DNA of 63,300 nucleotides, counting the filler, from Parachlamydiales bacterium (lineage in GTDB: Bacteria > Chlamydiota > Chlamydiia > Chlamydiales > Parachlamydiaceae): NCBI GenBank assembly GCA_020051075.1. It is 6 parts of 6 records of this genome, joined end to end, with 100 filler letters (N's around TTAATTAATTAA, not from the genome) between each part and the next. Parts side by side here need not be neighbours in the genome. Positions count along the whole stretch, not along the records: positions 36,493 to 49,340 come from JAGVJP010000084.1; 5 more parts are not named here. One strand, given 5' to 3'. Positions 27,788-59,860 of the stretch are shown in pieces. The translations under genes and the position numbers were made by a program. The stretch's first letter is position 1. Each line of letters begins with the position of its first letter. The notes under the pieces were generated by a model. That model was not told where the DNA came from, searched no databases, and saw only the letters and a list, made by a program, of their open reading frames with translations.

Positions 27788-28073
27788 ATGCTTCCTAAAT
27801 ACAGAAAGCCAACACTTCCAGGCAAAATACTATTAGAGGAATTTCTCATTCCTCTTGGCATTTCTCAGTCAGATTTTGTGAGACATCTTGACGGTTCCTG
27901 GTCCCAGCCTAAGCTAAGTGCAATTATCAACGGGAAGAGGTCCATTACGGAAGAAATAGCCCTTGATTTTGCCGATGCGTTGGGAACGTCACCAGAGTTT
28001 TGGATGGGGCTGCAGACAGACATACATTTGTGGGAAGCTGCCCAAAAACACAAAAAAATTCCTCTCATCTCTA
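27788..28073 (+). CDS. higA: HigA-family antitoxin (HTH); last codons cut by the contig end
   Basis: PGKILLEEFL, IINGKRSITEEIAL, LGTSPEFWMGLQ; downstream of higB. Confidence 0.92.
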
Positions 28074-28173
28074 NNNNNNNNNNNNNNNNNNNNNNNNNNN
28101 NNNNNNNNNNNNNNNNNTTAATTAATTAANNNNNNNNNNNNNNNNNNNNNNNNNNNNNNNNNNNNNNNNNNNN
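28074..28173. other. Artificial contig linker
   Basis: N-run with central TTAATTAATTAA (stops in all frames). Confidence 0.99.
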
Positions 28174-28332: not shown

Positions 28333-28740
28333 ATGACAAGTGCAATACAAGGGGCAACAACAGCAGTTTCAGAGATAGCTGCCGGAGGGTGCGCACAGTT
28401 TTTTCTTCGCTGGAAAGGACGCGGCATCCAGCTCCTGACACATCTCTCCATTGAGATGCACCGGAAGCCTCTCAAAGCCCTGTTTGTCGTTGTGAGTGCA
28501 AATGCGCTGTTCTATGTTCTTGTCTCTCATCAACTAGTCCGTTCCCTTGATCATCGTTTCAATCCATCTGAAGAACCAGACGACCACAGTTTCAGACATG
28601 TCGCTGTGATCGGACCGTTAACAATCATCTTTAATATCGCTTTTGCTAAGCTGACACAATACCAGCTCAGCCGAATTACTTTATTGATGATTACCACTGC
28701 GATTATTTCTCTTCGTATGTTATACATGCGTCGTCAATAA
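28333..28740 (+). CDS. Inc-like membrane protein, WxGRxI paralog family member 1
   Basis: 135 aa with several hydrophobic segments; aligns by eye with the 28866 and 35801 ORFs. Confidence 0.75.
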   Translation: MTSAIQGATTAVSEIAAGGCAQFFLRWKGRGIQLLTHLSIEMHRKPLKALFVVVSANALFYVLVSHQLVRSLDHRFNPSEEPDDHSFRHVAVIGPLTIIFNIAFAKLTQYQLSRITLLMITTAIISLRMLYMRRQ

Positions 28741-28865
28741 CAACGCCATTTACAAAACTATTATTCAATGATGATTTTTTTCTTGTAAATGAATGTATTT
28801 ATGTGTATAAATCTATATTTAATTGTTAATTTTACAATATTATATTTTATTTTTAGAGGTTTGAA

Positions 28866-30656
28866 ATGTCTGGTGCAATACAAAATTTAGTTGATACTAT
28901 TTCAGGGATAAATCGTGGAACGTTAGTTCAATGGGGGACTCAATGGAAAGGACGCGGAATCGAACTTCTAACGAACCTCTCAGCACGGATGCACCAGAGC
29001 CCTTTTAAAGCCTTCGCTGTCATTTTAACCGCCAACGCATTGTTCTACACACTGTTTTCCCGCGTCATCATCAACCTCTTCAATCAGCCAGGTCAGGTGG
29101 AAAGAAATCGTTTGAGAGACGTGATGGCCCTCAGTGTGTTGACACCGCTGTTTAATCTAGGTTTCTCTAAGCTTTTACAATTCCAATTGAGCCGCACCGC
29201 TCTCCTCGCGATCACCTCAACAGTGATTATCCTTCGGCTCTTGTTTAAGAATGAAAGTGGTTCAACCGAAATCAGGAACACCCAACAAGGACAAAGCACA
29301 CCAGCAATTTCACCAAAGCCAACCTCAATACCAACAAAGCCAACACCAGCAATTCCACCAAATCCAATGACTTCAACAACTCCTACAAAGTCTACAGTCG
29401 AACCCTTAACTTCACTGTCTTTTAATTTCTCAGATCCTGATGCCCAAGCTCTTAAGTCTTTTGGTTTCACAGAAGATCAATTGACAACTCTCTTTGAAGC
29501 TGTGAATGCGGAGGAAGCTAGCGGCATTGCCTATGCCTTTCATGCGTTTTGTTACGAATGTTCAATGAATCACTTTCTTTTATTCTCTCTGGATACAGAT
29601 GAGAAGAGAAACACGCTCATACAAGATATGATCACTCGCTTCAATAAAATAAAGAATGACTTTGTCGATGACTCTATTGGCGCATTTTGTCGAATCTCGG
29701 GAGACCTACGAATAAGAGAATTAAATGCCAATTATTCCTATTTAAAACGATTAAATTTTGTGAATGATCAAAATTACAACAGTCTGATAGGGATGGGCTT
29801 CAGTGAGCAGCAGTTAGCGATATTTGCTAAGACTGTGATCGGTGCTGATTGGACTGTAGAGGGCACTGCACTTTTCAACTGGCTAATGACGCAAGTGAGG
29901 GACCTCGGCCAAAAAGATTTATGGACACAAGAAAATAAGACCTTATTTTTAGATCATGTGATCAGCGAGTTTGCTGCAAGAGCTAAAACACGACCATCTG
30001 CGAACGGTGTAATGGCTGATCTCGAAGAAATTGTTCTAGCGGCTCAGCAGAGGCTTTCAGAGTATACAGACGATGCGTCCTCAGGAGGAATCAATCGAAA
30101 CCACCCTGCTTATCAAAGACTCTTGATTCTCGGTTTTAGTGATCGTCACCTGGTTGAACTTCACCAAGAGATAGGAGCCAATGAAGATTCAACACTAGAA
30201 GCGCTCGATGGATGGATGGGGAAATTTCCGTCTCTAAATGTCAAATCATCAATCGCGAAAATGAACCTTGCCAAAAAGGTGCGTTCGCGTAAAGAGGATG
30301 TTGATTCAGTTGGAAAACAACCTTTAGAGTTGTTGAGAGATGTTCTGGAAACTCAATTGCACAAGCATAAATTCATCGACCTCAATTATACCGAGACAGA
30401 TAACTTCTTCATCACTTTCGCTGAAGGGGCACAAATTGATTATTATACTTCATTGGAAATCATCAGCGAGTGTTTCCAAGAAGCCCATGAGCAATGCAAG
30501 GCCCTGCCCCGAGACCCACGTGCAAAAACGGCTTTTACTCGAGCTCTTGTGAGAAATTACAATATACAGAAAGGTTCTCAACAGCTTAATAAAGACGAGA
30601 TGTCTCGGTTAGTGAAAAGAATTTTTAACGAAACTCTCCCACAGTTTTCCTCTTAA
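28866..30656 (+). CDS. Inc-like protein, WxGRxI family member 2, with a Pro/Thr linker and helical C-terminal domains
   Basis: The N-terminal ~130 aa are paralogous to the 28333 ORF; PT-rich linker; repeated (L/M)GF(S/T)ExQL-type motifs. Confidence 0.8.
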   Translation: MSGAIQNLVDTISGINRGTLVQWGTQWKGRGIELLTNLSARMHQSPFKAFAVILTANALFYTLFSRVIINLFNQPGQVERNRLRDVMALSVLTPLFNLGFSKLLQFQLSRTALLAITSTVIILRLLFKNESGSTEIRNTQQGQSTPAISPKPTSIPTKPTPAIPPNPMTSTTPTKSTVEPLTSLSFNFSDPDAQALKSFGFTEDQLTTLFEAVNAEEASGIAYAFHAFCYECSMNHFLLFSLDTDEKRNTLIQDMITRFNKIKNDFVDDSIGAFCRISGDLRIRELNANYSYLKRLNFVNDQNYNSLIGMGFSEQQLAIFAKTVIGADWTVEGTALFNWLMTQVRDLGQKDLWTQENKTLFLDHVISEFAARAKTRPSANGVMADLEEIVLAAQQRLSEYTDDASSGGINRNHPAYQRLLILGFSDRHLVELHQEIGANEDSTLEALDGWMGKFPSLNVKSSIAKMNLAKKVRSRKEDVDSVGKQPLELLRDVLETQLHKHKFIDLNYTETDNFFITFAEGAQIDYYTSLEIISECFQEAHEQCKALPRDPRAKTAFTRALVRNYNIQKGSQQLNKDEMSRLVKRIFNETLPQFSS

Positions 30657-34398: not shown

Positions 34399-34821
34399 TT
34401 ATTTATTTGGACATATCTTTGGATAAATCTCTTGATACAACTTTAGGCCAATTTGGTAAATGATAAAAGAAGTCCCAAATACAGTCAAAATCTGTGTATT
34501 AGTGAGTCCCTGGTTGAAAACGTTGCAAAGAGCTTTCGTTACAATAAACGAGATTGCGATTTTGGAAAAATCACGCATCAGCACTAGAGGTGAATTTGGG
34601 TCAGAAATTTGAACATTGTTGTTGATCGAAGGGCTGATGGCTTTCCAGATAGTAAGCATTGTAAACGAGAAAAATGCTGCACGCATTGGAGGAACAAAGG
34701 TGAAGCGAGAAGCATTGAAATAAGTGAATCCGCTGATTGCTAATGTTTCCAATAGTGGCGAAGCAGAATGATAGTGATTGGTTACATAACTCGGTAACAT
34801 TGAGGTGAGTTTATTTGTCAT
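34399..34821 (-). CDS. Small hydrophobic hypothetical protein (Inc-like candidate)
   Basis: 140 aa with several hydrophobic segments; AAGGA upstream. Confidence 0.65.
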   Translation of the reverse strand: MTNKLTSMLPSYVTNHYHSASPLLETLAISGFTYFNASRFTFVPPMRAAFFSFTMLTIWKAISPSINNNVQISDPNSPLVLMRDFSKIAISFIVTKALCNVFNQGLTNTQILTVFGTSFIIYQIGLKLYQEIYPKICPNK

Positions 34822-35026
34822 ATTATTTCCTTAAGTTAAAATTAATTATCAGAAAATGATTTTGATCGTTTTATGAATATATGCGAAAAAAACGTCCGCT
34901 AACAGATTAAACATTAGATTACTATAAAGTTGTTATTTTTCCTAGAAAAATATTCCTCATCAAAGGGGGAGCACGGATCCTAACCAGAATCTACCGTGAA
35001 CGAGCCTGGGCTCGTTCACGATAGAA

Positions 35027-35467
35027 TTATTCGTCAGCACTCATGTATGCACGAAATACCTGCCCAGAAAATGCAGCTAACGTAAGAATAAAGCTGCTCT
35101 TGTAGGAGAGCGTGCCCATAGAGCATTGTTGCACTGCTACTGCGCTCAAGACACCGCCTACGACAATGATTGCTGTGCGGCTGTGCATTGAAATATCCCG
35201 ATATCGCCGCATTGTTTCAACCGCGCTCGTAACTACAGTGTAATTTACGACTGCAAATAACGCAGCGGAAAGAATAGACGTGGATTGAAAGTATTTTGCA
35301 CAAGCCACTGTAACAATTAATGAAACTGGCAATCCATGAAGCACACAACGGTCAACAATATATTCATTGTATTTATTGCTACACCAATCAGCAGCCTTTG
35401 GCCAACGATCGGACATATTTTCAGCAATTCGATTTAAAAAAACTCCACACATAATAACTATCTCCAA
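35027..35467 (-). CDS. Small hydrophobic hypothetical protein (Inc-like candidate)
   Basis: 146 aa with two bilobed hydrophobic regions; start uncertain. Confidence 0.65.
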   Translation of the reverse strand: MEIVIMCGVFLNRIAENMSDRWPKAADWCSNKYNEYIVDRCVLHGLPVSLIVTVACAKYFQSTSILSAALFAVVNYTVVTSAVETMRRYRDISMHSRTAIIVVGGVLSAVAVQQCSMGTLSYKSSFILTLAAFSGQVFRAYMSADE

Positions 35468-35540
35468 TTAAATTAAACGATTTACTAACGAATGATAACA
35501 AATTCAGTTATATATGTCACTATAAAAAAGTTGCGAGTAG

Positions 35541-35690
35541 TATGGACAATATGGACAATATGGACAAGATGGACTTTATGGACGGGGATGGACCTATTGT
35601 TCTCGTGCATAAAGTCCATCCTGTCCATATTGTTCATACCTGTCCATATTGTTCATACCTGTCCATATTGTTCATTTCATCCCGTCCATT
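35541..35690. repeat. ATGGAC-family foldback repeat (copy 2)
   Basis: TATGGACAA tandem units followed by inverted GTCCATATT units; same unit family as 85-263. Confidence 0.85.
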
Positions 35691-35800
35691 TTTTCGAGAT
35701 CACCAGCGTTTTTGTTTAAACCCATAATATTTCCTATTTAAATATTCCACTTGCAATTGAATTTAGTTTGTGTTAAAATTGGTTTTTTCAATTCAATAAT

Positions 35801-36392
35801 ATGGAGTTAACAATGTCAGGTATGATACAAACTGTTGGATCGCAATTTTCTGGGATCAATTATCAGGGAATTTCTAAATTTTGTGTAGAATGGACGGGTC
35901 GTGCAATCGATTTTTGTAAGACAATCCCAAATCGAGTCGGACCAGAAAATTTGAAAATTGGCGGAGCATTTGTCTTGACAAACGTGTTCTGTTATCTCTT
36001 GACTAGTTTGTTCATTGCTAAGTTAGAACAGCGTTATCAAACTCATGATAAAGTGAGTGGAAATTTGACAGACAGACAAATAAGCCTTAAGCAAGGGGTG
36101 CTCAATGGAGTTATCCCTGTTACTTTGGCTGTGATATTTAATGTTGCACTTGCTAAGGTGATCAAGCACGAGTTAAGCTTAATCGGGTTGTTGGGGATCA
36201 CGGCTACTGCTGTGATTATTCGTCATTTACTCAATCGGCCAAAACCACCAGCAGCAGAGACGCCACCAGCCGGGACACCAGCAGCAGAGACGCCACCAGC
36301 CGGGACACCAGCAGCAGAGACGCTACCAGCCGGCACACCAGCAGCAGAGATTCCCCCAGCAGGAGAGATTCCAGGAGGGACACTAGCAGCAG
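35801..36392 (+). CDS. Inc-like protein, WxGRxI family member 3, truncated by the contig end
   Basis: MSGMIQ...EWTGRAI...FNVALAK aligns with the 28333 and 28866 ORFs; C-terminal PAAETPPAGT repeats. Confidence 0.78.
36247..36392 (+). repeat. 30-bp coding tandem repeat (PAAETPPAGT)
   Basis: ACCAGCAGCAGAGACGCCACCAGCCGGGAC repeated about 4-5 times with decay. Confidence 0.9.
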
Positions 36393-36492
36393 NNNNNNNN
36401 NNNNNNNNNNNNNNNNNNNNNNNNNNNNNNNNNNNNTTAATTAATTAANNNNNNNNNNNNNNNNNNNNNNNNNNNNNNNNNNNNNNNNNNNN
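36393..36492. other. Artificial contig linker
   Basis: N-run with TTAATTAATTAA. Confidence 0.99.
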
Positions 36493-36493
36493 T

Positions 36494-37159
36494 TCCAAAG
36501 ATCATGTTTTTAAAGCGTTAGAATGTATCAGACTCGAGCCTGAAGAGCGTATTTTTTTGCGTTCCAGTATTGATTTAGAATTGGTTGAAAATGCTCGTCA
36601 GTTTGAGGATCAAACACCCGGCTATTTTGGAGTAGATGTAAAGCTTCGCGCGAATAGCGCAGGATTGCTTCTCTTTTCTTATTGGATGCATCACTTTGCG
36701 GTATCGGTAGATAAATGGGCTGATTTTCAGAACAGATGGAATAACCGTCTAACAGAACAAAAAGAGACGCCAGATGATAGGATGGAACCTTCAACTAGTT
36801 GGCTTCATTTACGAAAAATAGAGAGTACTTTTGAACAACCTATTTTCTCTTTTGAAGCGCCTGATGATGGAAGTCGAGACTTATATATCTTTGGCAACCC
36901 AAGAGGTTTTGAAGAATTGTCTCAAATCACAGAGGAGTATGCTTTTAGCTCCGATCATGATGAATTCTATGACATACCCTTGGAAAAGATGTTTAGAGGA
37001 CATCCTAGAGTCGGAATATTTGGTCCGCAACACTTTCGCTCTTTTAATGGATGGCAAATTTTAGGGGGAGGCTTTTTTAATCCAGCTTATAATCCCCTAA
37101 AAAAACAGTCACTGTTCGATGCGAAAATGAATCACGTAAACACAAGGATTCTATTATGA
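36494..37159 (+). CDS. Hypothetical protein with two Imm32-like immunity motifs; 5'-truncated
   Basis: The frame is open back to the contig edge. Motifs LRANSAGLLLFS and IFGNPRGFEELS. Its stop overlaps the next start (ATGA 37156-37159). Confidence 0.6.
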   Translation, partial: SKDHVFKALECIRLEPEERIFLRSSIDLELVENARQFEDQTPGYFGVDVKLRANSAGLLLFSYWMHHFAVSVDKWADFQNRWNNRLTEQKETPDDRMEPSTSWLHLRKIESTFEQPIFSFEAPDDGSRDLYIFGNPRGFEELSQITEEYAFSSDHDEFYDIPLEKMFRGHPRVGIFGPQHFRSFNGWQILGGGFFNPAYNPLKKQSLFDAKMNHVNTRILL

Positions 37160-40100
37160 TTCACGATACGCTAGACAGTTTGTACCATTCAAGATCCCAT
37201 CAAGAAATTTGTCAGGATATTGGAGAAAACGGAAAATTGGCTGATTCCAAAAAACGAATTGAGCGATTAAAAGCTTCTATATTTCCTCTGACGAAACCTT
37301 TCCTAGATCAGCATGGGGATACTTTTCAGGTTTGGTCGACCCCCGGATCGAGAGCTATTGTGACGATTCAGCATTCTAGTGGTCTAATCACATATGTTTC
37401 AAGAATTAGAAATGCTCTTAATCTTGATGACAACTGTGTGACGATACATAACAGGTTGTTAACTGCTCCAGATTATTGCGAATGGAGATTCACTCCGAAT
37501 GAGGATGGAAGTTTGACTATATGGCCTCACATATTGGCTGGGGGGTGGAGGGATGTTCTTCCGCGATCACAATTTGATCTAAGTGGTTTAACGAGACTTG
37601 CCCGTGGAAAAACTCAAGAGCAAATGTGCGCTTGGTTTTATACTAATGACTACCAGGCCAATAACCCAAGAGAGGGAACTCGCATAGAAATTCACATGGA
37701 TGGGCAATTTGCTGGGTCATATTCTCCCGAGGATCATCAGACCATTCGGAATTTATTAAGGCAGGGAGGGAATATTCTCGCTATCCATTTCGCAGAAGCA
37801 AGTCATCGTGGGCAGCAAAACAACTTTATTGGGAGAGGCCTAACTTTTCAACATCCATCAGACAGAAGTGAATCTACATTTAATGTGGATTTTACAAGGG
37901 TGAGAAATGAACATGGTGATTTGGTTGCTGAAAATGAAGGAGGGTATCACATTGATGTGAGAAACCCTGGATTTAGTAGCAAGGTGAAAATTAGTACCAG
38001 GGAGACTTATGATGCTAACTATGAAGCAATTAGAGGTGGGAGAGCGAGACCTTTCAAATTAAAAGCCGCATTAATCATAAAACCTTTTCACCAAACACTT
38101 CAGCAAACAGGGCTAACAAAATCGTATAACTCGTCGAATCCAGATCACCCAGCACCAGAACAGGGAAGTACACAGGGAGAGATTGGGGGTGTAGGATGTA
38201 GTGTAGAGTTTCTTGAGGGGCTTTTCAACAATCCAGAATGGCTTTTTGAGGCTGAACATCAGTTTTTTATTCCTGAAATGAATGGGGAGATTATTCCTTG
38301 TACGACGCAGGAGCTGCATCAGCTTCTTCAGGAGCTAGCGGTGGGAATCTATGTGCATGACACCATTCCATTTTTTAGCCTTCACTTTAACCAAGATACC
38401 AACCTGTATCCTGTCATTCATCCTGCTTATCAAAATACTCTTGTCGGGCAGGTCATCAGTATGCTCGATTATTTCATGAAGGGGTACTTGAATGGAGCGG
38501 TTTTCAAGGAAGAATTTGTGCAACAGTGGCAACAAAATCCCTATCCAATTGTCGCTAAACGGGGGATTTTTGATCAGATGATCGACTTTCACGATTATGC
38601 TGGAATTCATCTCTCAGGAAGAGATCAACGCTATTTTTCTGCTAGAACGCTCTTGAATTTATCTGGAGAGGGAGATACTCGCGTTGAACGAGCCATGGCG
38701 ACGGCGACGTCTGCCTTTTCAAGGATGACTCGCACTCCTCCTCAATATGACTTTTCAGATTACACGAAATTTACTAATTCCTTCCGAATCATTGCCAAAC
38801 AGCAAAAGATTGAAAAAACAAAAGAGTTGTTCGTTCTACATCCTGACTTTGATGTCTTCTATACAATTGAACCTGACCCTGAATACAAAGCACGCCTTGA
38901 TGAATATCATCAACTGACTGGGATGTATCCGCTTGAATACCAGAAGTTGGAGATTGTTTATGATGTGATGAAAGAACGTATCCATGACCACATGACGAAG
39001 ATGCCTTTTTGTCGAAAATACTTTGCGATGCTAGGCCTCATCAATTTCTTTTCGCACTATTTCATGACGCTAAAAAAACATCGAAGGTTTCCTATCTTAC
39101 CAAGGTGTCATCCTCAACCTGCTGGATCCCCTTCGCTATTTCCATCCCTTCCTCTTCTTGCTCAAAAAGAGTTCACCCTTACTTATCGTTCTTCTGAGGT
39201 ATTGGTAAGTATCATTGGGAAAGAGAGGGATAGATTAAAAGAGTATTACAGTACGGGAGATTTGTCTCGCCGCAATGAGCTTAAGGCTTCCATTAAAGAA
39301 TCTTGGGTGAATCTTGTCTGGGAAAATCTTTATAATAGAACAGAATTTATTTATCAGCATTACTTGGAAAGTGATAAGGCAAAATACCTGAGGTTAATTT
39401 CCAGCCGATTTCCCTTTGATTCGTTAGATTTGATCGAATCGGTTTCGATGAGAGTGCGGCGTGATGTTGATAGCTATTTATCGATCCCTGATTTATTAGA
39501 TGATTTTCCCAACTACTTATCAAAAATTATTGATTATAATAAGTTCTGGAATGGCCTTATAGCACGTTCAGAGGTGTCATTAAAAGGAGAGGAGCTCATT
39601 GTTCTATTACCATCGAACCAAACTCTAGAAGACCATGGGGGAGGAAGGAAGATTGTTGGAGGCTGCGGCCTTCATATGGAACAGCATCCTATTCTCAGTT
39701 CATCAAATGGACCTTATATTTTAGAACATGTCAAGGAGCTGTTAGCTCATACATCTCATGGTGAATGGATTCCTTTAGATACTGACGGAGCGGTTTGTCC
39801 GAAAGGGGCAGTGTTTAAATTGGCTTTTGACGATCTTCCTCTAGGAATTTTGGAGGATAAAGAAGGGTTGCATCACTTCCTAGTTGGTTCTGTTCCTCCT
39901 ACGGATACGTCATTATCATCATCTTCTTCTTCCTCATCATCTTCTTCTTCCTCATCCTCTTCTTTGGTCTCGCCAGACCCCATTTCTAATGTTCTCAAGA
40001 TACAGAGAATTTTATCTTTTGTTGCAAAGAACGACCAAGAGGGGTTTCTTAGAGAAATTAATGACTATTCATTGCAACAGTTGAACGACTATCAAGGCCG

Positions 40101-43100
40101 GAATTTGCTTCATAGAGTCTTAAAATTTGATCATGTTTTTTTCTTAAAAGAGCTATTGAAACGTCGAATTTCTCTTTCACAATCCGATCATCAAGGATAT
40201 CTCCCGATTCATTATGCAGCGATGTATGGTCGAATGCCGCATCTAACAATTTTATATGAGGCTGAAAGGTTAACGAGAGAATCTAAGAGCCTGCAAGGGG
40301 CAACCCCTCTAACGGTGGCTATTCAACACGAGCAACTGGAGGCTGTGCTGTTTCTTCTTGCAAGGGGGGCTGTAATCTTCACACGCACCAAGGATGGGTA
40401 TAGCTCTCTCCACACAGCACTGCATTACGGAAATGAAAAAATCGTCCTAGCTCTGCTAAAGCAACCTTATATTACTGAAACTACTGTTAATTTGACGACT
40501 AATGAGGGGATCACTCCATTGATGCTTGCTTGTGAGTCTAAAAATCTTACTCTGGTCAAAGCTTTGCTGAATTGTGGTGCAAATCCAACAATTGTTGCTA
40601 AAAATGGGTTAACTGCTTTAGATATCGCTGTAAGGAATGATGATTATCCGCTCTGTGAGCATCTTTTCCCTTTATCAGCCTTAACAAGAATGACGCTTGA
40701 GATTGCGATAAAGAGTAGCTCGCTTGAAATAAATACCTTGTTATCAAGACATCAAAGTTATCAGACTAATCAGAATAGCCTTGGAGATACCCCAATTCTT
40801 ATGTCTTTGAGGTACGCTAATATCCCAGTGTTTAGATATTTGTTAGACCGTATGACTGATCCAGCTCTTTTGAACGTTAAAAATCGTTTAGAAGAAAGTC
40901 CTTTAGAACTCACTGCAAAAGGAGGTTTTTATGAGGACTTCATGAATCTTCTCAGAAAAGGTGCTGTTGATGAACCGTTTCAACTGATTTCTTCTCTGTT
41001 GAAGGGAGGGTATGCAGGTCAAAATGATGAGATCAATCGGTGGATAAAAAATCAAAATTTGTCCGAACATCAAATTCACAAATTAGTGATAGATTCTCTC
41101 GACGTAGGCAATCACATGGGGGTCTCAATCGTTTTAGACTTAGATCAACGGTATCTCGATGACATCCAAGGGCCTCGTGGATGGAAAATTGAACATTATC
41201 TGGCCAAATCCGATGCGCTCTTTCTATTTAGAGAACGGTTTATCGGAAAAGATGATTATTTATACCGTTTAGATCAGGAGGGAGGGAAAACTTTGCCATA
41301 TATCGCTGCAGAAAACCGAAGTTGGCGTGTTTTAAATTTTCTCTTAACTAAAATGAGAAAGAAAGGAATCCCTTTTGATAATCATTTTAATGAACGTCAT
41401 CTCTTCTATAGTATTTTTGAGAGCGGAGATCTTATGGGAATAGAGCTCTTGATAAGGCTTTTGAACGATTCGGAGGCGATGCATATCCCATTAGATAGAG
41501 AAGGAGCCAGAGGAACCCATCTTGTCGCCAAAGAAGGTTCCAGGGAAGTATTGGAGTATTTATCGAAGAAGGGTGCTGATTTTTCTCTTGTTGATGGTCT
41601 GGGGAGATGTTCGCTCTACTATGCTGTCCGCTTTGAAAACCGAGCTGCAATGAAATTTTTATTAGCTAAGTCTCTTCCCATTTCTGCTGAGGTGATTTAT
41701 GCGGCAGCTGAAAATAAACGACAACTTAAGAGTTTATTGTTAAAAGGAGGGATAAATCAACGAGATTCGCGAGGAAATTCAGCCATTTTGCTAGCTGCTA
41801 AGGATGGGAATTTACGAGCTTTTCTTGCTTTATTACACGCTGGAGCATCTTTGGAAGTGAAGAATCGTGCTGGTTGGAGTCCGTTGCTCTATGCTGCTTA
41901 TCACGGCAATATTGAGATGATCAAACTTATTCTTTCAAAAATCCAAAATCCTCAGCTAGATACTATAAAAGGAGAAAATGCTTTACACATCGCCATTCGG
42001 CGGAGTCATATTTCATGCATGAGACTTTTGATCAACCATCAATTCTCTCTTGAACAGCCTAATCAGAATGGTGTGACAGCTAGAAACCTTGCGGAAAAAT
42101 TTTTTGCATGCCGAGCAGTTATTGGGGTAGAAGGAGATGAGGATAAATATGATCGTTTTATGTTTGACTTAAGATTAGCGATTCGCGAACAGGATCTTAC
42201 TGAGATATCTTCTCATTTAGATGAGTGGTTCATCAATACCTATTTTTCTATCACCGTGGAAGGAAAAAACTATGAAGGAACGCTTCTCCATATTTTGTTA
42301 CATTTCTGTGCAGATTGTCCTCAGCTGGAGGGTATGATTGCGAGGATATCTAATCGAGAGAAGTTTTCTTTCAAATTAAAGGATTCCTTAGGCAATTCTT
42401 ATGCACACCTTATGGTCAAGGCTGGCTATGACCCAATTCAGATAGGTTCGTATCAAGACTTGCCTCTGATGTTAGGTGAGAAGAATGTTCATCAGGATAC
42501 TCCCTTACATCTTGCTGTTCAGGAGACTAAATTTCGCTATTTGTCAAATCTAGTCGATCGGTTGATTCGAATTGAATCTCCTAATGAAACTGGATCTGCG
42601 TCAAGTTCACAACCGATAAGGATGGTGAGAAATACTCATCTCTTAGATCCGATCAATCGATCTGGACGTACCCCCTTATTTGCAGCCATCATAGCTAACA
42701 ATATAGAAGCGATTATTTGCTTAGTAGATAATGGTGCCAATCTCAATCATAGAGATTTTTCTGGAATAACTCCTTTAATCCTCGCATGTAGTAAAGGAAA
42801 TTATACTGTAGCCAGACTACTCATTCAACGAGGTGCTGACATTAATTTGTCAACTCGAAAGGAGGAGAGACAAACGGCTTTAACAACTTCTTTGATGATG
42901 AAAAATGAAATGATGGCTCTTTTTCTTTTGTTTCAAGGAGCGAAGACTGATGAGAGAAAGCCGATTCCTCTTGTTCATCTAGCTGCAAAATCAGGATTGA
43001 AGCCCATCCTTCGATTTTTAGCAGAAAAGGGGATGTCATTGACCACAAAAGATACTAAAGGTAGGCAGCCAATCCACTATGCTGCAACAGCTGAAACGAA

Positions 43101-44028
43101 TGAATCGTTAGTTTTATTGAAGGAATTGGGGGTTTCGATCCACTCAAAAAGTCATCATTTGACACCACTTGATCATGCGGTAAGAGAAGGTACTGTTGAT
43201 GCTGTCAAGTGGCTTCTCAAAAATCGGGCTAATCCCTTAGAGTCTACTTCCGAGTTGAAGATTTTGGCGTCAACGTTGATTAACACACCGGTTAATACGG
43301 AACGTCTCCTTATCTTGTTTAAGAAATATTTACTTTCAACAGATTTAAGACAAATTATTCCTGCAATAGGGCTTGCTATACAGAGAGATTATATTGAACC
43401 TCTCAAGTTGTTATATGGATTAGGCATTCCCATTGACGGGAGAATAAATGAGTCTGAATATTCTGGATTACATCTGGCTTGTAAATTTGGTGCTTTGCAG
43501 TCCACAGAATTTTTTCTGACAAGAGGGAGCGATTGTTTTGAGAAAACAAGATTTGGAGACACACCATTGGAGATTGCCGCTGGAAATAAGTCTGTCACAC
43601 AATTCCGGATGATGCTTAATTTTGTTGATTATGATGTGGATGGTCGTAATCTAAAAGGGGAAACACTCCTTCACCATGCTGTAAGTGCAGGTAATTTGGC
43701 TCATGTTGCTTTGTTATTAGAAGCTGGTGCAGATCTTAATTTACAAGATGTACAGGGTCAGACACCACTATTTCGTGCAGTTGAACAGGAAAATAATTCT
43801 ATTGTTGAGTTACTGATGGTCTGTGGAGCAGATAGCGAGATTTCTACCTCATTCAGTGGTTTGCGGCCTAATGATATGACTTGTAAGAAAGACATTCGTG
43901 ATATCGTACAAAAATACAATCAACTCAGAGGACCTAGCATCACCCCCTTGGATATTGCTTTGAGAACTGGTAGCTATTTAGCTGAAAAAGTGTGCGCTCA
44001 ACGAGAAATCCATGGGAGGGTGAGATGA
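37156..44028 (+). CDS. Giant multidomain ankyrin-repeat protein (2290 aa)
   Basis: Many GxTPLHxA-type ankyrin repeats from ~aa 975 to the C-terminus; poly-Ser linker ~aa 920-936; ~900-aa non-ankyrin N-terminal region. Confidence 0.9.
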   Translation: MIHDTLDSLYHSRSHQEICQDIGENGKLADSKKRIERLKASIFPLTKPFLDQHGDTFQVWSTPGSRAIVTIQHSSGLITYVSRIRNALNLDDNCVTIHNRLLTAPDYCEWRFTPNEDGSLTIWPHILAGGWRDVLPRSQFDLSGLTRLARGKTQEQMCAWFYTNDYQANNPREGTRIEIHMDGQFAGSYSPEDHQTIRNLLRQGGNILAIHFAEASHRGQQNNFIGRGLTFQHPSDRSESTFNVDFTRVRNEHGDLVAENEGGYHIDVRNPGFSSKVKISTRETYDANYEAIRGGRARPFKLKAALIIKPFHQTLQQTGLTKSYNSSNPDHPAPEQGSTQGEIGGVGCSVEFLEGLFNNPEWLFEAEHQFFIPEMNGEIIPCTTQELHQLLQELAVGIYVHDTIPFFSLHFNQDTNLYPVIHPAYQNTLVGQVISMLDYFMKGYLNGAVFKEEFVQQWQQNPYPIVAKRGIFDQMIDFHDYAGIHLSGRDQRYFSARTLLNLSGEGDTRVERAMATATSAFSRMTRTPPQYDFSDYTKFTNSFRIIAKQQKIEKTKELFVLHPDFDVFYTIEPDPEYKARLDEYHQLTGMYPLEYQKLEIVYDVMKERIHDHMTKMPFCRKYFAMLGLINFFSHYFMTLKKHRRFPILPRCHPQPAGSPSLFPSLPLLAQKEFTLTYRSSEVLVSIIGKERDRLKEYYSTGDLSRRNELKASIKESWVNLVWENLYNRTEFIYQHYLESDKAKYLRLISSRFPFDSLDLIESVSMRVRRDVDSYLSIPDLLDDFPNYLSKIIDYNKFWNGLIARSEVSLKGEELIVLLPSNQTLEDHGGGRKIVGGCGLHMEQHPILSSSNGPYILEHVKELLAHTSHGEWIPLDTDGAVCPKGAVFKLAFDDLPLGILEDKEGLHHFLVGSVPPTDTSLSSSSSSSSSSSSSSSSLVSPDPISNVLKIQRILSFVAKNDQEGFLREINDYSLQQLNDYQGRNLLHRVLKFDHVFFLKELLKRRISLSQSDHQGYLPIHYAAMYGRMPHLTILYEAERLTRESKSLQGATPLTVAIQHEQLEAVLFLLARGAVIFTRTKDGYSSLHTALHYGNEKIVLALLKQPYITETTVNLTTNEGITPLMLACESKNLTLVKALLNCGANPTIVAKNGLTALDIAVRNDDYPLCEHLFPLSALTRMTLEIAIKSSSLEINTLLSRHQSYQTNQNSLGDTPILMSLRYANIPVFRYLLDRMTDPALLNVKNRLEESPLELTAKGGFYEDFMNLLRKGAVDEPFQLISSLLKGGYAGQNDEINRWIKNQNLSEHQIHKLVIDSLDVGNHMGVSIVLDLDQRYLDDIQGPRGWKIEHYLAKSDALFLFRERFIGKDDYLYRLDQEGGKTLPYIAAENRSWRVLNFLLTKMRKKGIPFDNHFNERHLFYSIFESGDLMGIELLIRLLNDSEAMHIPLDREGARGTHLVAKEGSREVLEYLSKKGADFSLVDGLGRCSLYYAVRFENRAAMKFLLAKSLPISAEVIYAAAENKRQLKSLLLKGGINQRDSRGNSAILLAAKDGNLRAFLALLHAGASLEVKNRAGWSPLLYAAYHGNIEMIKLILSKIQNPQLDTIKGENALHIAIRRSHISCMRLLINHQFSLEQPNQNGVTARNLAEKFFACRAVIGVEGDEDKYDRFMFDLRLAIREQDLTEISSHLDEWFINTYFSITVEGKNYEGTLLHILLHFCADCPQLEGMIARISNREKFSFKLKDSLGNSYAHLMVKAGYDPIQIGSYQDLPLMLGEKNVHQDTPLHLAVQETKFRYLSNLVDRLIRIESPNETGSASSSQPIRMVRNTHLLDPINRSGRTPLFAAIIANNIEAIICLVDNGANLNHRDFSGITPLILACSKGNYTVARLLIQRGADINLSTRKEERQTALTTSLMMKNEMMALFLLFQGAKTDERKPIPLVHLAAKSGLKPILRFLAEKGMSLTTKDTKGRQPIHYAATAETNESLVLLKELGVSIHSKSHHLTPLDHAVREGTVDAVKWLLKNRANPLESTSELKILASTLINTPVNTERLLILFKKYLLSTDLRQIIPAIGLAIQRDYIEPLKLLYGLGIPIDGRINESEYSGLHLACKFGALQSTEFFLTRGSDCFEKTRFGDTPLEIAAGNKSVTQFRMMLNFVDYDVDGRNLKGETLLHHAVSAGNLAHVALLLEAGADLNLQDVQGQTPLFRAVEQENNSIVELLMVCGADSEISTSFSGLRPNDMTCKKDIRDIVQKYNQLRGPSITPLDIALRTGSYLAEKVCAQREIHGRVR

Positions 44029-47000
44029 ACATAAGCAGTTCTGAAGTTCAGAGTTTTTTAACATCTTATGAAAAAAAAATATTATCAACGGTCGAAGTTT
44101 CGTTACAGGGACTAATCGTTTCAAATCTCTTTGAGATTCAATCCGTAGAGATTGCTCAAATAGCTTCTAAGGTACTTGACATTATTGGTAAGAGCTCTCC
44201 AAGTCAATCACGAGATCGGTTTTTCATTCATTTATTAAAAGATAGAATACCACTTACACCAGATCGGCTAAAACAGATTTTAGCGGTTCTTGATGTAGGG
44301 TTTTTTGAGAAATTTCTTTTGACAGTGGATTCGAATAAAAAAAAATACCATCCCAAAGAAAAAATCCTTCATCTGATTAATACTTTTTATAACGATGTCA
44401 TTCGACCATCTCAAATTCAGCAACAGATGATTCTTACAAGCTCGTCAAGTAGTAGTAGTGGTAGTGGTAGTAGTTCGCCAATTGAGGTGGTATATGAAAA
44501 TTTAAAACGCTGTCAAGTCTATTGTAAATTTGTTCTTCTGGTAAATGAGTATGTTAGTTTAACTACGGAGAGAAAAGATTTAATTTCGCGAATCGTGCAA
44601 GTCATGTTTGATAAGTTAGATTCAAGTGAAGATTTTTGGTTTAATGATTGTGAAAAATTACTTTTGGGGAAAATTATCCTATGCACGGTTGGACCTGACA
44701 TGAACTCAGTTACCTTTGCTTACACTGAAAATCTTATCCAAAATAGTCTTGCGGTAGTTTTGAAAGTCAAAACCCTGATTGGAGATGAAATCTTATTCCG
44801 TCTTTGTCAATCATTCTTAAATAAAAATGGAACCCATTTGGAGGAATTTATCAATTCTGTGAATTTGATTTTACTTGTCAGTCCATTTAAGAAAACTTTT
44901 CACCTTTCATTGCGCGCATGGGCTGCAGCGTCATATTCGTGGGATCAAATTCAATCCTGTTTTAACCAAACAGAAAGTGTAAGTCAATCAAAATACACTC
45001 CCGAGGATAGTATTAGAGCTACGTTGGAAAGATTTAGAAATGACGCAACAGTCCAACGACAATTGACTGATGCTCATCTCGAACTTATAAGTGATCAGTA
45101 TCGTTTAGTAGATAATCTTTGTGGTGAATATTGTTCTTTAGACTTTTCAGAACTTATTTACATTGCTCATACGATTCGCAGTCGTGCTAGAGATTGTACA
45201 TTAGAACCTTTAGATCGGTTCAAATTGATTGCAGTAGGGCGTCTTGCAATCAAATCTTACTTCGGAATATATCCCTATACAACACAGATTCTCGCTCTAC
45301 TTGGCGTTTTTATTGAAAATAAAAGTTGGCAAGTCCAAGTAAAGACTGGTGAGGGAAAATCTATTATTATTGCACTATGGGCGTTTGTCATGTCGATGGA
45401 GTGCCGTTGTTTAGATATTATTACTTCCGCTCGATCACTGGCTATTAGAGATCAGCTAAAGTTTGCCGACTTCTTTCAAAAATGTGATATTATCACAAGC
45501 CATATCTGTTATGATATCAAAAAAAAAGATCACTTCAAAGCACAAATCCTTTACGGACCGGCCTTCGATTTTGAATTTGCATTCATGGAAGATCTTTTAT
45601 ATGACTCACAACTCTTTGCTGCACGTTTAACCCATCCTTACATAAAGCGAAACTTTGACTGTGTTTGCGTAGATGAGTCAGATAATCTCTTAGTAGATAC
45701 CTCTCAAAATAGCGCTCGATTATCTCTGCCAGCTGAATTGACCTATGATTGGATCTATTCACCAATTTTGAACTATGTTAGACATCATTTCACTCTTGAG
45801 AATATGAGAACAGTCTCACAGGTCCACATCGATTCGATCAAAGATTGTTTAAGAGCAATTGGAAACGAAAGGAGGGTACAGTCGATATCTGATGAAGAAA
45901 TCAGAAAAAAAATTGAGTCAGCAATCATTGCGCTTTATTTACGAAAGGAGGATATCGACTATGTTGTAAGGACAACGATAGATTTTCAAGGGACGTCAAG
46001 ACGGGCAATTCAAATTGTTGATCTAGAGACAGGGCGTATTTCGGAGAATAGTCGTTGGACTGATGGGATACATGAGTTTATTGAATTAATACACGACATT
46101 GTTGTCGAAAAAGAAACTCTGAATCCAATTTCTCTTTCACACGCTGTTTTTTATCACTTTTACCACACGGTTACTGCTTTGACAGGGACAGCAGAAGACT
46201 ATCAAACAAAAGGAATTTATGGAATAGGGTCATTTGATGTGCCTCCTCATAAACCTTTGAAAAGGAGGGATCTTCCGGCGGTTATTTTCGATACACAACA
46301 AGGCCAATATGATGGAATCTTACAGGTAATAACAGAAATGGTACGCCGGCAACGACCGGTTCTTCTTCTTTGTGAGACTATTCTAGATTCAAAGCATGCT
46401 TCCTCTCGTTTAGATTCAGCAAATATCCCTCACACTCTACTAAATGAGGTTCAAGAAGAATCTGAAGAAACGATCATTTATAGGGCGGGATTACCTGGGA
46501 GTGTAACAGTTGCGACAAATACTGCTGGAAGAGGAACTGATATTATCCTATCGGCAAAAAGTATTGAGAATGGTGGCCTCCATGTCTTGTTGACTTTCTT
46601 TCCAGACTCTGATCGGATTTACTATCAAGCTGTAGGACGTGCTGGAAGGCAAGGGCAACCTGGATCATCTCAAATGTTTCTCTGTAAGGAAAAAGAGATG
46701 ATAAGGAGATTTCGTGGAGACTTCCATGGAACAAATGATGATTTTCTACTTGCTTTGAGATTGCAGAGATCAATTATTGAGGATCTTACAACCCGAAGAC
46801 ACTTATTTCAGGCAAGTATAGAACGTCATCTCGCAAACAAAACGAAGATTTTCTTTTCATTATTTCATGAGTGGGTACATGTTGTTGAACAGGATCATTT
46901 TTCTGATTCTTATAGTAGGATGCTATGTTCTATTCATCTGGCTCCGAATAAGGTTCTTGATTTTTCCCATCTTTTTGATTTTGATTTGAAATTAGCAGAG

Positions 47001-47315
47001 ACAGCGAAGCAATTGTTGTTATCCCCAGAGCAAGATTCATTGAATTGGAAAATGTTAATAGAAGGAGTTGTTAAGCGGGTCAAATATAAAATTCTCACTG
47101 CCTGGTCGTCAAATTTCTATGAACCAATCACAAAAATTTGCAATAGGGGTGATGATCTTGAAGCCAAGAAATCTGAAATTGATTTATTTTTTGATGCCCA
47201 CGCACACAGTTGGAATAAATATTTATCTATTGATGGAAAAGGAACGTTAATTTACCTCCAAGAACTCCTTTCGATTGATTTTATTGCTATATTGACTAGG
47301 CTTGGTCGTTTGTAA
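44025..47315 (+). CDS. SecA-like DEAD ATPase paralog with an N-terminal helical extension
   Basis: ATG 44025 overlaps the upstream TGA, with GGGAGG upstream. SecA-type motifs QVKTGEGKS, VDESDNLLVD, LTGT, VATNTAGRGTDI, GGLHV, QAVGRAGRQGQPGSS. Confidence 0.88.
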   Translation: MNISSSEVQSFLTSYEKKILSTVEVSLQGLIVSNLFEIQSVEIAQIASKVLDIIGKSSPSQSRDRFFIHLLKDRIPLTPDRLKQILAVLDVGFFEKFLLTVDSNKKKYHPKEKILHLINTFYNDVIRPSQIQQQMILTSSSSSSSGSGSSSPIEVVYENLKRCQVYCKFVLLVNEYVSLTTERKDLISRIVQVMFDKLDSSEDFWFNDCEKLLLGKIILCTVGPDMNSVTFAYTENLIQNSLAVVLKVKTLIGDEILFRLCQSFLNKNGTHLEEFINSVNLILLVSPFKKTFHLSLRAWAAASYSWDQIQSCFNQTESVSQSKYTPEDSIRATLERFRNDATVQRQLTDAHLELISDQYRLVDNLCGEYCSLDFSELIYIAHTIRSRARDCTLEPLDRFKLIAVGRLAIKSYFGIYPYTTQILALLGVFIENKSWQVQVKTGEGKSIIIALWAFVMSMECRCLDIITSARSLAIRDQLKFADFFQKCDIITSHICYDIKKKDHFKAQILYGPAFDFEFAFMEDLLYDSQLFAARLTHPYIKRNFDCVCVDESDNLLVDTSQNSARLSLPAELTYDWIYSPILNYVRHHFTLENMRTVSQVHIDSIKDCLRAIGNERRVQSISDEEIRKKIESAIIALYLRKEDIDYVVRTTIDFQGTSRRAIQIVDLETGRISENSRWTDGIHEFIELIHDIVVEKETLNPISLSHAVFYHFYHTVTALTGTAEDYQTKGIYGIGSFDVPPHKPLKRRDLPAVIFDTQQGQYDGILQVITEMVRRQRPVLLLCETILDSKHASSRLDSANIPHTLLNEVQEESEETIIYRAGLPGSVTVATNTAGRGTDIILSAKSIENGGLHVLLTFFPDSDRIYYQAVGRAGRQGQPGSSQMFLCKEKEMIRRFRGDFHGTNDDFLLALRLQRSIIEDLTTRRHLFQASIERHLANKTKIFFSLFHEWVHVVEQDHFSDSYSRMLCSIHLAPNKVLDFSHLFDFDLKLAETAKQLLLSPEQDSLNWKMLIEGVVKRVKYKILTAWSSNFYEPITKICNRGDDLEAKKSEIDLFFDAHAHSWNKYLSIDGKGTLIYLQELLSIDFIAILTRLGRL

Positions 47316-47543: not shown

Positions 47544-48869
47544 ATGGCTGTGTTTCAAGGCAAGAAAAGGGAGTCGTGGGGGGAATATCTAGCAAACCTT
47601 CCCTCTTTGTTTATCCGTTCAATCTTTCGGCATAACTATCCCAATAACGATGTCGACCGTTCTGAAGTCATCTTCAAAAACTTCTTCCTCCATTTCCACC
47701 CGGTCAAATGTCATAAGCATTCGCTAGATCCATTCTATACGCTTGGCTTAGGGACAATTTCAACAAGCCTATTTCTCTTGTTGACTTTCACCGGCGTGAT
47801 CTTGATGTTCTATTATATCCCTGCTGAAGATCGTGCCTACGATATCATGAAAGATTGGCAAGACACCACACCTTTTGCCATGATGTATCGAAATATGCAC
47901 CGCTGGAGCGCTCATCTGATGGTTCTCTTTGTCTTCCTCCATATGTCAAGGGTGTTTTATACCGGTTCGTATAAAGGACCTCGCCGTTTTAACTGGGTGA
48001 TAGGCGTGACATTGATGGTGCTGACGCTGCTTCTCTCTTTCACAGGCTACCTTCTCCCTTGGGATCAGCTTGCCTTCTGGGCGATCACTGTCGGGTCAAA
48101 TATCGCTGGATATGTCCCCAACCTCCCAGGTTTTGAATACAATGTCAACCGTGTGATGCTTCTCGCTTCAACTTCAGTCGGACAAGATGCCCTCATCCGT
48201 TTTTACGTCCTCCATGTCGCCTTGCTCCCTCTCATCACTGGTACATTGATCGGAGTCCACTTCTGGCGGATACGAAAAGATGGTGGCTTGTCGAGACCTC
48301 CAGATAAGTTCAGACCTGATCCCTATCGCGTTGTGCAGCGTTCTGATACGAAGGAATCGTTTGCACCAGGAGTCAAGAGAACGTATGGTCTCATGGAGCT
48401 TGTCAGAGGGACATGCCCCACTGTAGACAAAGGCCCCTACAATTTTGTCTTCACCTGGCCTCATCTCCTGAGAGCAGAACTCCTCGTCTTTCTGGCAACG
48501 ACAGCGGTCGTGTTATTGCTGTCATTTATTGATGCTCCTCTTGAAGAACCAGCTAATCCTGCCAAACCTCCTAATCCCTCAAAGGCGCCGTGGTACTTCC
48601 TCGGCCTCCAGGAAATGGTTGCCTATAATGCCTTTTGGGGTGGCGTTGCAATTCCGCTCTTCATCATCCTCGGATTGATGAGCATCCCTTACCTTGATCG
48701 AAACCCTCATGGAGAAGGCGTCTGGTTCCATCGCAGCCGCTATCTTGCGATTTTCCTGTATACACTGTTTATGACATGGCAGGGAATTTTGATCGTCGTG
48801 GGGACATATTTCCGAGGAGCCAACTGGGGTTGGATTTGGCCATGGACTGAAAATTTTGCAAGGCATTGA
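47544..48869 (+). CDS. Cytochrome b of a Rieske/cyt b complex (N-terminal cyt b plus subunit-IV-like C-terminus in one chain)
   Basis: Heme ligands RNMHRWSAH...LHMSRVF and FYVLHV...VHFW; FTGYLLPWDQ; Qo motif KAPWYF. Confidence 0.9.
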   Translation: MAVFQGKKRESWGEYLANLPSLFIRSIFRHNYPNNDVDRSEVIFKNFFLHFHPVKCHKHSLDPFYTLGLGTISTSLFLLLTFTGVILMFYYIPAEDRAYDIMKDWQDTTPFAMMYRNMHRWSAHLMVLFVFLHMSRVFYTGSYKGPRRFNWVIGVTLMVLTLLLSFTGYLLPWDQLAFWAITVGSNIAGYVPNLPGFEYNVNRVMLLASTSVGQDALIRFYVLHVALLPLITGTLIGVHFWRIRKDGGLSRPPDKFRPDPYRVVQRSDTKESFAPGVKRTYGLMELVRGTCPTVDKGPYNFVFTWPHLLRAELLVFLATTAVVLLLSFIDAPLEEPANPAKPPNPSKAPWYFLGLQEMVAYNAFWGGVAIPLFIILGLMSIPYLDRNPHGEGVWFHRSRYLAIFLYTLFMTWQGILIVVGTYFRGANWGWIWPWTENFARH

Positions 48870-49340: not shown

Positions 49341-49440
49341 NNNNNNNNNNNNNNNNNNNNNNNNNNNNNNNNNNNNNNNNNNNNTTAATTAATTAANNNN
49401 NNNNNNNNNNNNNNNNNNNNNNNNNNNNNNNNNNNNNNNN
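49341..49440. other. Artificial contig linker
   Basis: N-run with TTAATTAATTAA. Confidence 0.99.
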
Positions 49441-55400: not shown

Positions 55401-55666
55401 CGAGAGGAACTTTCCATGGAGTTGGCTCAAGAACAAAGATTCATCGATTCAAGCAAATCCTTCAAAATCCATATTCTCCTCATCTTGATGTTACAGAGGA
55501 GGGGACGTTTAATAATGGGGTATTGGTTGACGGAAGGAGGACACTAGGAGATGGAACAATCCATAGGATCTTTCAACTTGATAACAGAACCGTATCCACA
55601 GTCGAATACAAACCGCCTACAACTGTTAAAGGGGTCCTCAATCAATTTTTCAGTTGGAGAGGTTGA
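52412..55666 (+). CDS. LRR (ribonuclease-inhibitor-like) protein with a central unknown domain and C-terminal MORN-like repeats
   Basis: 28-aa LxxLxLxxNxIGxEG repeats in two blocks, poly-Ser linkers, and EGTFxNGxLVxG repeats. Confidence 0.9.
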   Translation: MNFSELSSRILGLRVSTRTDFDVSNLDLDEEGVQRPEYFIPSQLSRAFEYNSHSHLRSINLEGNRFTRLDFLLPSMSRYASIKSYLRVLNVSRNRIDDKGAETIAQLFWRHHHLLQLDVSDNRIGNEGVQALAAAIRAPYCSGLIHLNISGNLISVEGTRAIAELLSTSTTLNQLYSLKHLNLSRNPIGNEGVRALGASLPMNRQLKVLYLDGCQIGIEGAVELARSIIDNFFLTDLSLKDNQIGDEGAIAFARTLTNNVSLQNLFLDKNQITLEGIRSLATALFDNANLNVLTLSGNAEGAEESSTLATINERLMAIQNMVRMSAKTPPISSSSSSSSSSSSSTMPSVSEAPYSEAPYTGSSRTSSSSDLSPLPTIDWNDGDDGVLIKRFERLKGEEERVKYFMYLACELINLKKTCPKTHKDIEVNNNWINGVREIECYLWTALMVLGEKLPNMKFGHQSIKFIGSMHPYPAGCHLEKEIGPLWRRYSKGSLYETVFKHHVKDYMCDLIEFPRSYRTKSSEGSHNANLEVAIKNTRLAKAGKLEIIIKQEELRIQREPETKLAKEKRLQHYLDRILPITTEVDWSHLSLGDEGAKAIAFVLNNNTTITTLSLKGNKIQEPGINAIAEALRNNSTLTILDLSNNQITLESLKALAQALVENKILTSLILDTETHQNTEVSQLLAVIEERLVANLVLAKEKEINENWGKDTAGMDRQSEACSSLPSAAPFNDPNELPHLVPFDDQEGIFQGEGKRITSGGPALASSSTSGPALASSSTSGPALAISSTSGQVLTSSSSSSSGSSAQGRMTRADGSWVEGTLEGVGRQTDSNGNIREGTFANGFLVHGKMTRIDRSWVEGTFEGTGRQTLSNGDIKEGTFANGLLVHGKRTFFQTKTWVEGTFQGEGMRTHTWGGKEEGKFVDEKLVEGKESGLNGWVMRNGTFTESGFSGYGEQGKPETSSSVRCGRFENDIFINGTIQEYSSSSLLLPGRYLAWETRGTFHGVGSRTKIHRFKQILQNPYSPHLDVTEEGTFNNGVLVDGRRTLGDGTIHRIFQLDNRTVSTVEYKPPTTVKGVLNQFFSWRG
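54687..54805 (+). repeat. 30-bp coding tandem repeat (GPALASSSTS)
   Basis: GTGGACCAGCATTGGCAAGCAGCTCAACAA repeated about 4 times. Confidence 0.9.
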
Positions 55667-56421: not shown

Positions 56422-56521
56422 NNNNNNNNNNNNNNNNNNNNNNNNNNNNNNNNNNNNNNNNNNNNTTAATTAATTAANNNNNNNNNNNNNNNNNNNNNNN
56501 NNNNNNNNNNNNNNNNNNNNN
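56422..56521. other. Artificial contig linker
   Basis: N-run with TTAATTAATTAA. Confidence 0.99.
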
Positions 56522-59760: not shown

Positions 59761-59860
59761 NNNNNNNNNNNNNNNNNNNNNNNNNNNNNNNNNNNNNNNN
59801 NNNNTTAATTAATTAANNNNNNNNNNNNNNNNNNNNNNNNNNNNNNNNNNNNNNNNNNNN
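59761..59860. other. Artificial contig linker
   Basis: N-run with TTAATTAATTAA. Confidence 0.99.

Follow-up and report, generated by a model that had tools for sequence, protein, structure and literature searches.

A giant ankyrin-repeat protein of a Parachlamydiales bacterium with a probable toxin-immunity module in mirror-image arrangement

Polymorphic toxin systems such as contact-dependent inhibition (CDI), Rhs, MafB and LXG combine a constant body with a swappable toxin and an adjacent cognate immunity gene, and share spare cassettes, strings of immunity genes and a common stock of toxin domains, as set out in the sections of Zhang et al. 2012 (PMC3482391) drawn on here. Section 41 of that survey gives as a pervasive rule that the toxin is followed by its immunity gene and that exchange takes place at the 3' tip. 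This study concerns a locus in a 63,300-nucleotide stretch of a Parachlamydiales bacterium genome (GCA_020051075.1; the window), where a giant protein of 2290 amino acids (aa) is preceded by a candidate immunity gene, here called gene 1. The locus and its relatives resemble the described systems in their constant body with a swappable toxin, adjacent cognate immunity gene, spare cassettes and strings of immunity genes, with Ntox28 and Ntox37-like domains as the common toxins. They differ in that the toxin is N-proximal (aa 131-300 of 2290), the immunity gene lies upstream and recombination falls at the 5' end, and in that the body is a core with ankyrin repeats, accompanied by a SecA-like ATPase and by no marker of type V, VI or VII secretion, of a PVC or of MuF. 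In its working the family would resemble a polymorphic toxin system, from which it departs in the C-terminal, toxin-first feature. We put at roughly 80% the probability that the locus belongs to a polymorphic toxin-immunity system in mirror image that works by the mechanism proposed below. The features on which the argument rests are as follows.

36494..37159, plus strand: gene 1, the C-terminal 221 aa of a putative cognate immunity protein of ~390 aa, with motifs 3 and 4 of 4; its start is on contig C19
37156..44028, plus strand: giant toxin-carrier open reading frame (ORF), 2290 aa, which begins within the stop of gene 1 (overlap ATGA) and has no signal peptide of hydrophobic type
37276..37545, plus strand: conserved beta-rich N-domain, aa ~41-130 (~90 aa), which travels with the slot
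37522-37545, plus strand: WPHLxAAG-type motif, here WPHILAGG, at the N-domain end
37546..38055, plus strand: variable toxin slot, type A, aa 131 to ~300, modelled as a helix and four-strand meander, with a ~50-aa insertion at aa ~170-221
37939-37959, plus strand: H265-x-D267 motif of the type A slot, invariant in type A
38068..39900, plus strand: conserved core, aa ~305-900, with the motifs PFFSLHF and LDYxMKGYLNG; the probable crossover point lies at its start
40078..43935, plus strand: ankyrin repeat region (approximate limits), Ank_2, E 8e-102, 14 stretches
43992..47315, plus strand: ATPase of SecA-like type, 1107 aa, with intact Walker A (TGEGKS) and DESD motifs, a conserved partner of the giant family

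The giant protein is one of a family of giants, mostly from Chlamydiota, with a conserved N-domain, a variable slot, a conserved core and ankyrin repeats, which here fill the last 1300 aa. Records carrying the family are assigned to Chlamydiota, Mycoavidus, Neisseriaceae and gammaproteobacteria. With aa 1-340 as query, a full phmmer scan produced 52 matches, 12 of them running throughout aa 22-339 and about 30 covering only aa ~30-135 and ~307-339, the remainder being fragments. Compared with 51 relatives that have other slots, identity was 14-19% in aa 141-300 and rose to 38-80% in aa 301-460; nine relatives of the same type were 27-64% identical in aa 141-300. A preliminary description of the locus had placed an exchangeable toxin module at aa 131-330, with a GGYHIDV motif. 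This motif is present at aa 262-268, and in the alignment of homologs the segment after the N-domain motif does vary between conserved flanks, with Ntox28 and Rhs-type domains in the same place in relatives; the proposed limits did not hold, however, as the segment ends near aa 300 and the exchanged unit also takes in the upstream gene and the N-domain.

The core itself matched nothing in Pfam, NCBIfam, PHROG, PADLOC, PDB sequences or the ESM Atlas, and a plasmid search with it found none; a resemblance to DUF1598 was considered and dropped, the core being without a Pfam match. A metagenome scan yielded one locus, which was not counted because its protein is identical to that of locus L031. 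Loci L045, L048, L052 and L054 encode the core but no N-domain and have differing N-termini (a class 3 lipase in L052, a glycine-zipper-like region in L048), which suggests a second branch of the family.

The 71 unique core-bearing proteins were sorted by BLAST clustering and by eye into eight slot groups and five others. Ntox28, which a passage of PMC9086364 identifies as the family of the tRNA-cleaving nuclease CdiA-CT of E. coli 536, is not the slot type of the window. It was found above the Pfam cut-off directly after the N-domain motif in 8 of 29 relatives scanned, which were picked from the 52 mainly for being without slot A (P0058 was left out), and likewise in 5 of the 32 slots or N-regions examined from the loci; most Ntox28 slots carry a DHxx[ED]-like motif. 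Being internal, these domains would be without the free C-terminal tail that, according to the same passage, binds CysK in CdiA-CT536. The type B slot (a helix, G.G.Y.HP and EP.HVD) also occurs at the C-termini of Rhs proteins, and one B-like Rhs tip scores 54.9 bits on Ntox37 (PF15535). Profiles of types A and B, compared whole, gave a probability of 8%, and 85% (E 6e-6) with the ~50-aa insertion removed by hand; six control groups each stayed under 2% against type A. The A2 slots reached 74% against type B, and type B 1.5% against other Ntox37 members.

A table in Zhang et al. 2012 lists Imm32 as a partner of Ntox37, both in chlamydiae, and Hx[DH] as the Ntox37 motif. This pairing fits the locus but is no proof. 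The resemblance to the Ntox37/Imm32 pair (PF15535/PF15566) consists of the HxD motif, H265-I-D267 here and kept in 13/13 type A slots, together with weak profile links on both sides. The differences are that neither window protein exceeds its Pfam cut-off, that the slot has its 50-aa insertion, and that its model is alpha+beta while Ntox37 is listed as all-beta. No Ntox37 match was obtained for the window slot, for three slots of the same or a near type, or elsewhere in this genome. The slot model (pLDDT, a predicted local confidence score, 66) is compatible with a small ribonuclease (RNase), as is its order of secondary-structure elements with BECR-fold RNases (a helix, then a four-stranded antiparallel sheet, with a catalytic His), for which no structural match was listed; in the ESM Atlas the top score for the slot was 0.77, and PDB sequence searches with slots A, B and D, the core and a HEAT-like upstream gene gave chance matches only. 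We lean, with some reserve, towards slot A being a small His/Asp (HxD) RNase distantly related to Ntox37-like toxins. Separately, Rhs-type frames of ~1640-1710 aa with C-terminal Ntox37 tips were seen in several genomes of the phylum (L057, L060, L061, L066 and L074), each followed by a conserved gene of ~210-230 aa that is not Imm32.

Gene 1 begins at the very edge of contig C9 and is thus a 5'-truncated fragment. Its first 53 aa were located with a homolog profile (E 2e-9) at the end of contig C19, running off the edge, and full-length homologs have 362-419 aa. The preliminary description had reported two similar motifs resembling a signature of Imm32 immunity proteins. Both occur in frame 36494-37159, at aa 51 and aa 132, but the number applies to the fragment, as full-length homologs have four motifs of the form N-x-x-G plus helix. 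Membership of Imm32 was not borne out: the window protein does not match the Imm32 profile, and its best homolog, P0006, reaches 16.1 bits and a piece from L090 13.4 bits, both under the 27-bit Pfam cut-off, with no match in the gene 1 homologs of L031, L036, L053, L094 and L096. An hhalign comparison with ten chlamydial Imm32 members scored 27.4 (E 0.0015, probability 17%) at the last repeat of the gene 1 family, and 30 column shuffles reached at most 15.5. The Imm32 pattern in this comparison is a strand-N-x-x-G-helix with a later His, to which the similarity is weak, and Imm32 members have 75-92 aa against ~390 aa and four motifs for gene 1. At the level of sequence, "Imm32-like" is a fair label for gene 1 and "Imm32 member" is not; NCBIfam, PHROG and PADLOC gave no family match.

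Among the 42 loci with upstream DNA, the family of the upstream gene follows the slot type, as had been predicted: the gene 1 family precedes 3/3 type A genes, an all-helical HEAT-like family (weak HEAT matches) 5/6 Ntox28 genes, a second family 4/4 type D genes, and leucine-rich-repeat proteins or a third family 6/9 genes of types B/B2. No other locus of the set contained a gene 1 homolog by tblastn. In a sample of the phylum, slot A was found in 5/400 genomes and the gene 1 family, as strong matches, in the same 5/401, adjacent every time; two of the five (G210 and G263) were in neither profile and the other three were. From this strict co-occurrence we infer that gene 1 neutralises slot A. 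Tandem immunity genes or spare cassettes stand upstream in L016, L017, L028, L038, L040, L046 and L049, and none in this genome. Candidate immunity genes were also noted on the strand opposite the toxin gene (L034:461-1015, L023:342-614, L041:6996-7934), and in a Mycoavidus record (L053:7286-8911) part of the upstream gene is almost identical in sequence to the end of the toxin slot of that locus, possibly a scar left by recombination.

Within a real toxin family, slot A might be a binding module, degenerate or without catalysis, and gene 1 its structural partner rather than an immunity protein; we give this idea little credence. The lack of a family or fold match for slot A, the 50-aa insertion and the score of gene 1 below the Imm32 cut-off would agree with it; retention of HxD in 13/13 type A slots across divergent genomes, and a position and gene pairing the same as those of verified toxin families, would not.

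Comparison of trees indicated how the slots are exchanged. A tree of the core start was built from 70 rows in a quick, unfinished search (7 duplicates and 1 short core were left out, so that 70 of the 71 unique proteins were used). On it the slot labels required 31 changes, against a minimum of 8 and a shuffled mean of 46.9. The branch that holds the window protein has nine rows and a support of 96; the other slots in it are of the Ntox28, B, D and F types, none being of type A. For the N-domain, a FastTree tree of 60 rows and 92 columns (10 more rows were left out for want of a full N-domain) placed type A in one branch, 10/10, with support 96, while the same rows needed 8 changes on the core tree; for all slot groups together there were 17 changes on the N-domain tree and 29 on the core tree. 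Since the N-domain tree groups the slots and the core tree does not, N-domain and slot, necessarily with the upstream gene, move together and cross at the core start. The swapped unit is therefore immunity gene, N-domain and toxin, with a crossover near aa 300-305. Locus L014 is a direct example of such an exchange: over the first ~275 aa it resembles the type B locus L028 (50-97%), after which come an Ntox28-like remnant and then a core closest to that of the Ntox28 locus L016.

The border between N-domain and slot bears on how a toxin might be released. In the preliminary description, the WPHILAGG motif, which is indeed present at aa 123-130, was read as a ubiquitin-like diglycine end after which the protein may be cut. 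The corresponding model, with a ubiquitin-like N-domain and a protease of deubiquitinase type that would release the toxin by cutting behind GG, has in its favour the LAGG of this protein, the GG of a few others and the placing of the motif exactly at the slot border. The N-domain end has the consensus W-P-H-L-x-A-A-G, however, with P in 77/77, A in 72/77, A in 58/77 and G in 69/77; GG occurs in 7/77, position 129 being Ala in 58/77 and Gly in 9/77, so that the diglycine is regarded as incidental. In the two-domain model (N-domain and slot, alignment-based, pLDDT 66) the N-domain has five strands around one late helix, and this strand-helix order differs from that of the beta-grasp fold. A fold search with the model (PDB, VIA-wide, BFVD) gave a best Z of 4.3 and no clear match, with no ubiquitin-like chain among the matches listed; a single-sequence fold had a pLDDT of 38, and the N-region matched nothing in NCBIfam, PHROG or PADLOC. 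Release by diglycine cleavage is accordingly regarded as extremely improbable.

In the mechanism we propose, a constant body of core and ankyrin repeats would carry an exchangeable toxin near its N-terminus, and a cognate immunity gene would lie upstream, translationally coupled to it, so that the antidote would be made before the toxin. Recombination at the conserved core start (aa ~300-320), as comparison of loci shows, replaces immunity gene, N-domain and toxin as one cassette and leaves spare immunity genes and cassettes upstream. WPHLxAAG would mark the toxin start and, as a guess from its position, perhaps the release point. The most likely task of the SecA-like ATPase and a membrane-type protein of ~250 aa would be to unfold or transport the giant so that it can be exported or delivered. 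Competing bacteria in the same host cell would be the likeliest targets.

The ATPase is SecA-like with E 1e-73, yet scores far under all true SecA cut-offs. Its gene is within 6 kb of the giant gene in 25/42 loci, and in 14 of the 17 loci without it the giant ORF runs past the end of the available DNA. A 254-aa ORF with a hydrophobic segment lies on contig C19 just upstream of gene 1; its ~250-aa family is linked in 9/42 loci as well as here, and a second small family in 7, making the ORF a candidate fourth component. It is possible, though doubtful, that these genes form a separate delivery class of polymorphic toxins, passed laterally between intracellular bacteria. A dedicated SecA-like motor, together with small membrane proteins, would then thread an ankyrin carrier of 2000-3000 aa out of the symbiont, the toxin end leading, and so kill other bacteria in the same host cell.

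Several points weigh against reading the locus as a mirror-image toxin-immunity system. The core tree came from the quick, unfinished search, the slot groups were defined by us and partly by eye, the relatives are not independent, and the insertion removed before types A and B were compared was chosen by hand. Members of type B other than the one Rhs tip had no Ntox37 match, and slot A was without a Pfam, NCBIfam, PHROG or solved-fold match and was not found in other toxin chassis by a weak search. A weak gene 1 profile match occurs in genome G152 without slot A (E 3e-4, 43 aa, with a stop), and no candidate immunity gene was found in L014, L025 and L030. The giant protein has no signal peptide, as judged by hydrophobicity, and no known secretion marker. 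Finally, ankyrins and SecA-like domains are described in PMC3482391 as typical of host-directed effectors.

The last two points lead to an unlikely alternative, that the giant is injected into the eukaryotic host by a type III route with a polar N-terminal leader, that RNA of the host or of its organelles is what the slot damages, and that the upstream gene, chaperone- or antidote-like, only protects the producer. The ankyrin body, the missing signal peptide, two FHIPEP export-gate genes in the genome, carriers that are mostly host-associated lineages by their record names, and the SecA-like domains of Amoebophilus host effectors (PMC3482391) are consistent with it. The slot domains are, however, those common to CDI/Rhs interbacterial toxins; rapid swapping with retention of spare immunity genes suits kin conflict; and host-directed toxins usually come without immunity genes (Zhang et al., PMC3482391). 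The nearest such proteins, Amoebophilus APD1/APD2 and other SecA-like/ankyrin effectors, compared by their description in that survey, have a lineage-restricted conserved N-domain, ankyrins, SecA-like domains and intracellular hosts. The APD proteins differ from the giants in having a signal peptide with a lipobox, in varying at the C-terminus and in being without cognate immunity genes.

A different reading would keep the protein inside the cell. As an intracellular defence or addiction module, the ankyrins would sense an invader, the ATPase would activate, the N-terminal nuclease would kill its own cell, and gene 1 would be the antitoxin, with no export. NLR-like defence proteins likewise have an N-terminal effector and C-terminal repeats, the antitoxin gene usually comes first in type II toxin-antitoxin operons, and the island looks recently inserted. 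PADLOC, however, gave nothing beyond weak helicase-motif matches of the ATPase, which is SecA-like, and a build-up of spare immunity genes fits incoming toxins better than a suicide module; we consider this reading quite improbable and retain that of a mirror-image toxin-immunity system.

The window consists of six contigs joined end to end by artificial linkers, with the locus at the start of contig C9. The remaining features are these.

28074-28173, 36393-36492, 49341-49440, 56422-56521 and 59761-59860: artificial contig linkers
36393..36492, no strand: artificial contig linker N44-TTAATTAATTAA-N44; the contig C8 DNA on its left side is not a true neighbour
47544..48869, plus strand: cytochrome b gene, which borders the island on the right; in relatives it comes directly after the Rieske gene

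Genes left of 36393 were rejected as neighbours of gene 1, being a linker artefact, and the ORFs at 27788-28129 and 35801-36448 have false ends because they run into linkers. The true upstream contig is C19, which ends with the start of gene 1 and also carries the Rieske gene, while C9 carries that of cytochrome b. Rieske and cytochrome b genes are 16-111 bases apart in 14/14 relatives, the best-scoring of 57 matching; since they are adjacent there, an island of four genes, namely the 254-aa ORF, gene 1, the giant gene and the SecA-like gene, has been inserted between them here. The G+C content at third codon positions is 0.29-0.38 in the island genes and 0.52 in cytochrome b. A search of sequencing runs listed no RNA data and small DNA shares only, and contigs left the gap in gene 1 unbridged.

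Elsewhere in this genome, contigs C132, C109 and C54 carry another five giant ORFs, of 1807-4507 aa, that have SecA-like regions and in which the N-domain and core of the giant family were not found, and contig C86 a 1028-aa ORF with a SecA-like region. In the window, small membrane proteins are clustered at positions 28333-30656 and 34399-36391. They have hydrophobic helices in pairs and repeats rich in Pro, two pairs of the proteins look paralogous, and we take them to resemble chlamydial inclusion-membrane proteins. On another contig, 52412-55666 encodes a 1084-aa leucine-rich-repeat protein, a typical effector-like gene.

No paper with this layout was found in a full-text literature search, outside of which most subscription journals lay, and the supplement of PMC3482391 might contain members. 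The sections of that survey used here describe intracellular bacteria as mostly without immunity genes. The family would reverse the known toxin-immunity geometry, and repeated toxin-immunity exchange in obligate symbionts would imply bacterial warfare inside host cells. It offers several uncharacterised toxin-immunity pairs, an equally uncharacterised N-domain and core, and, for the SecA-like ATPases that endosymbionts have, a testable role. According to PMC6520448, the means by which chlamydial symbionts shield amoebae against other bacteria are unknown, toxins being raised there as one option; if the giants and their partners were indeed a separate delivery class, they would be a candidate molecular basis of this symbiont-mediated protection.

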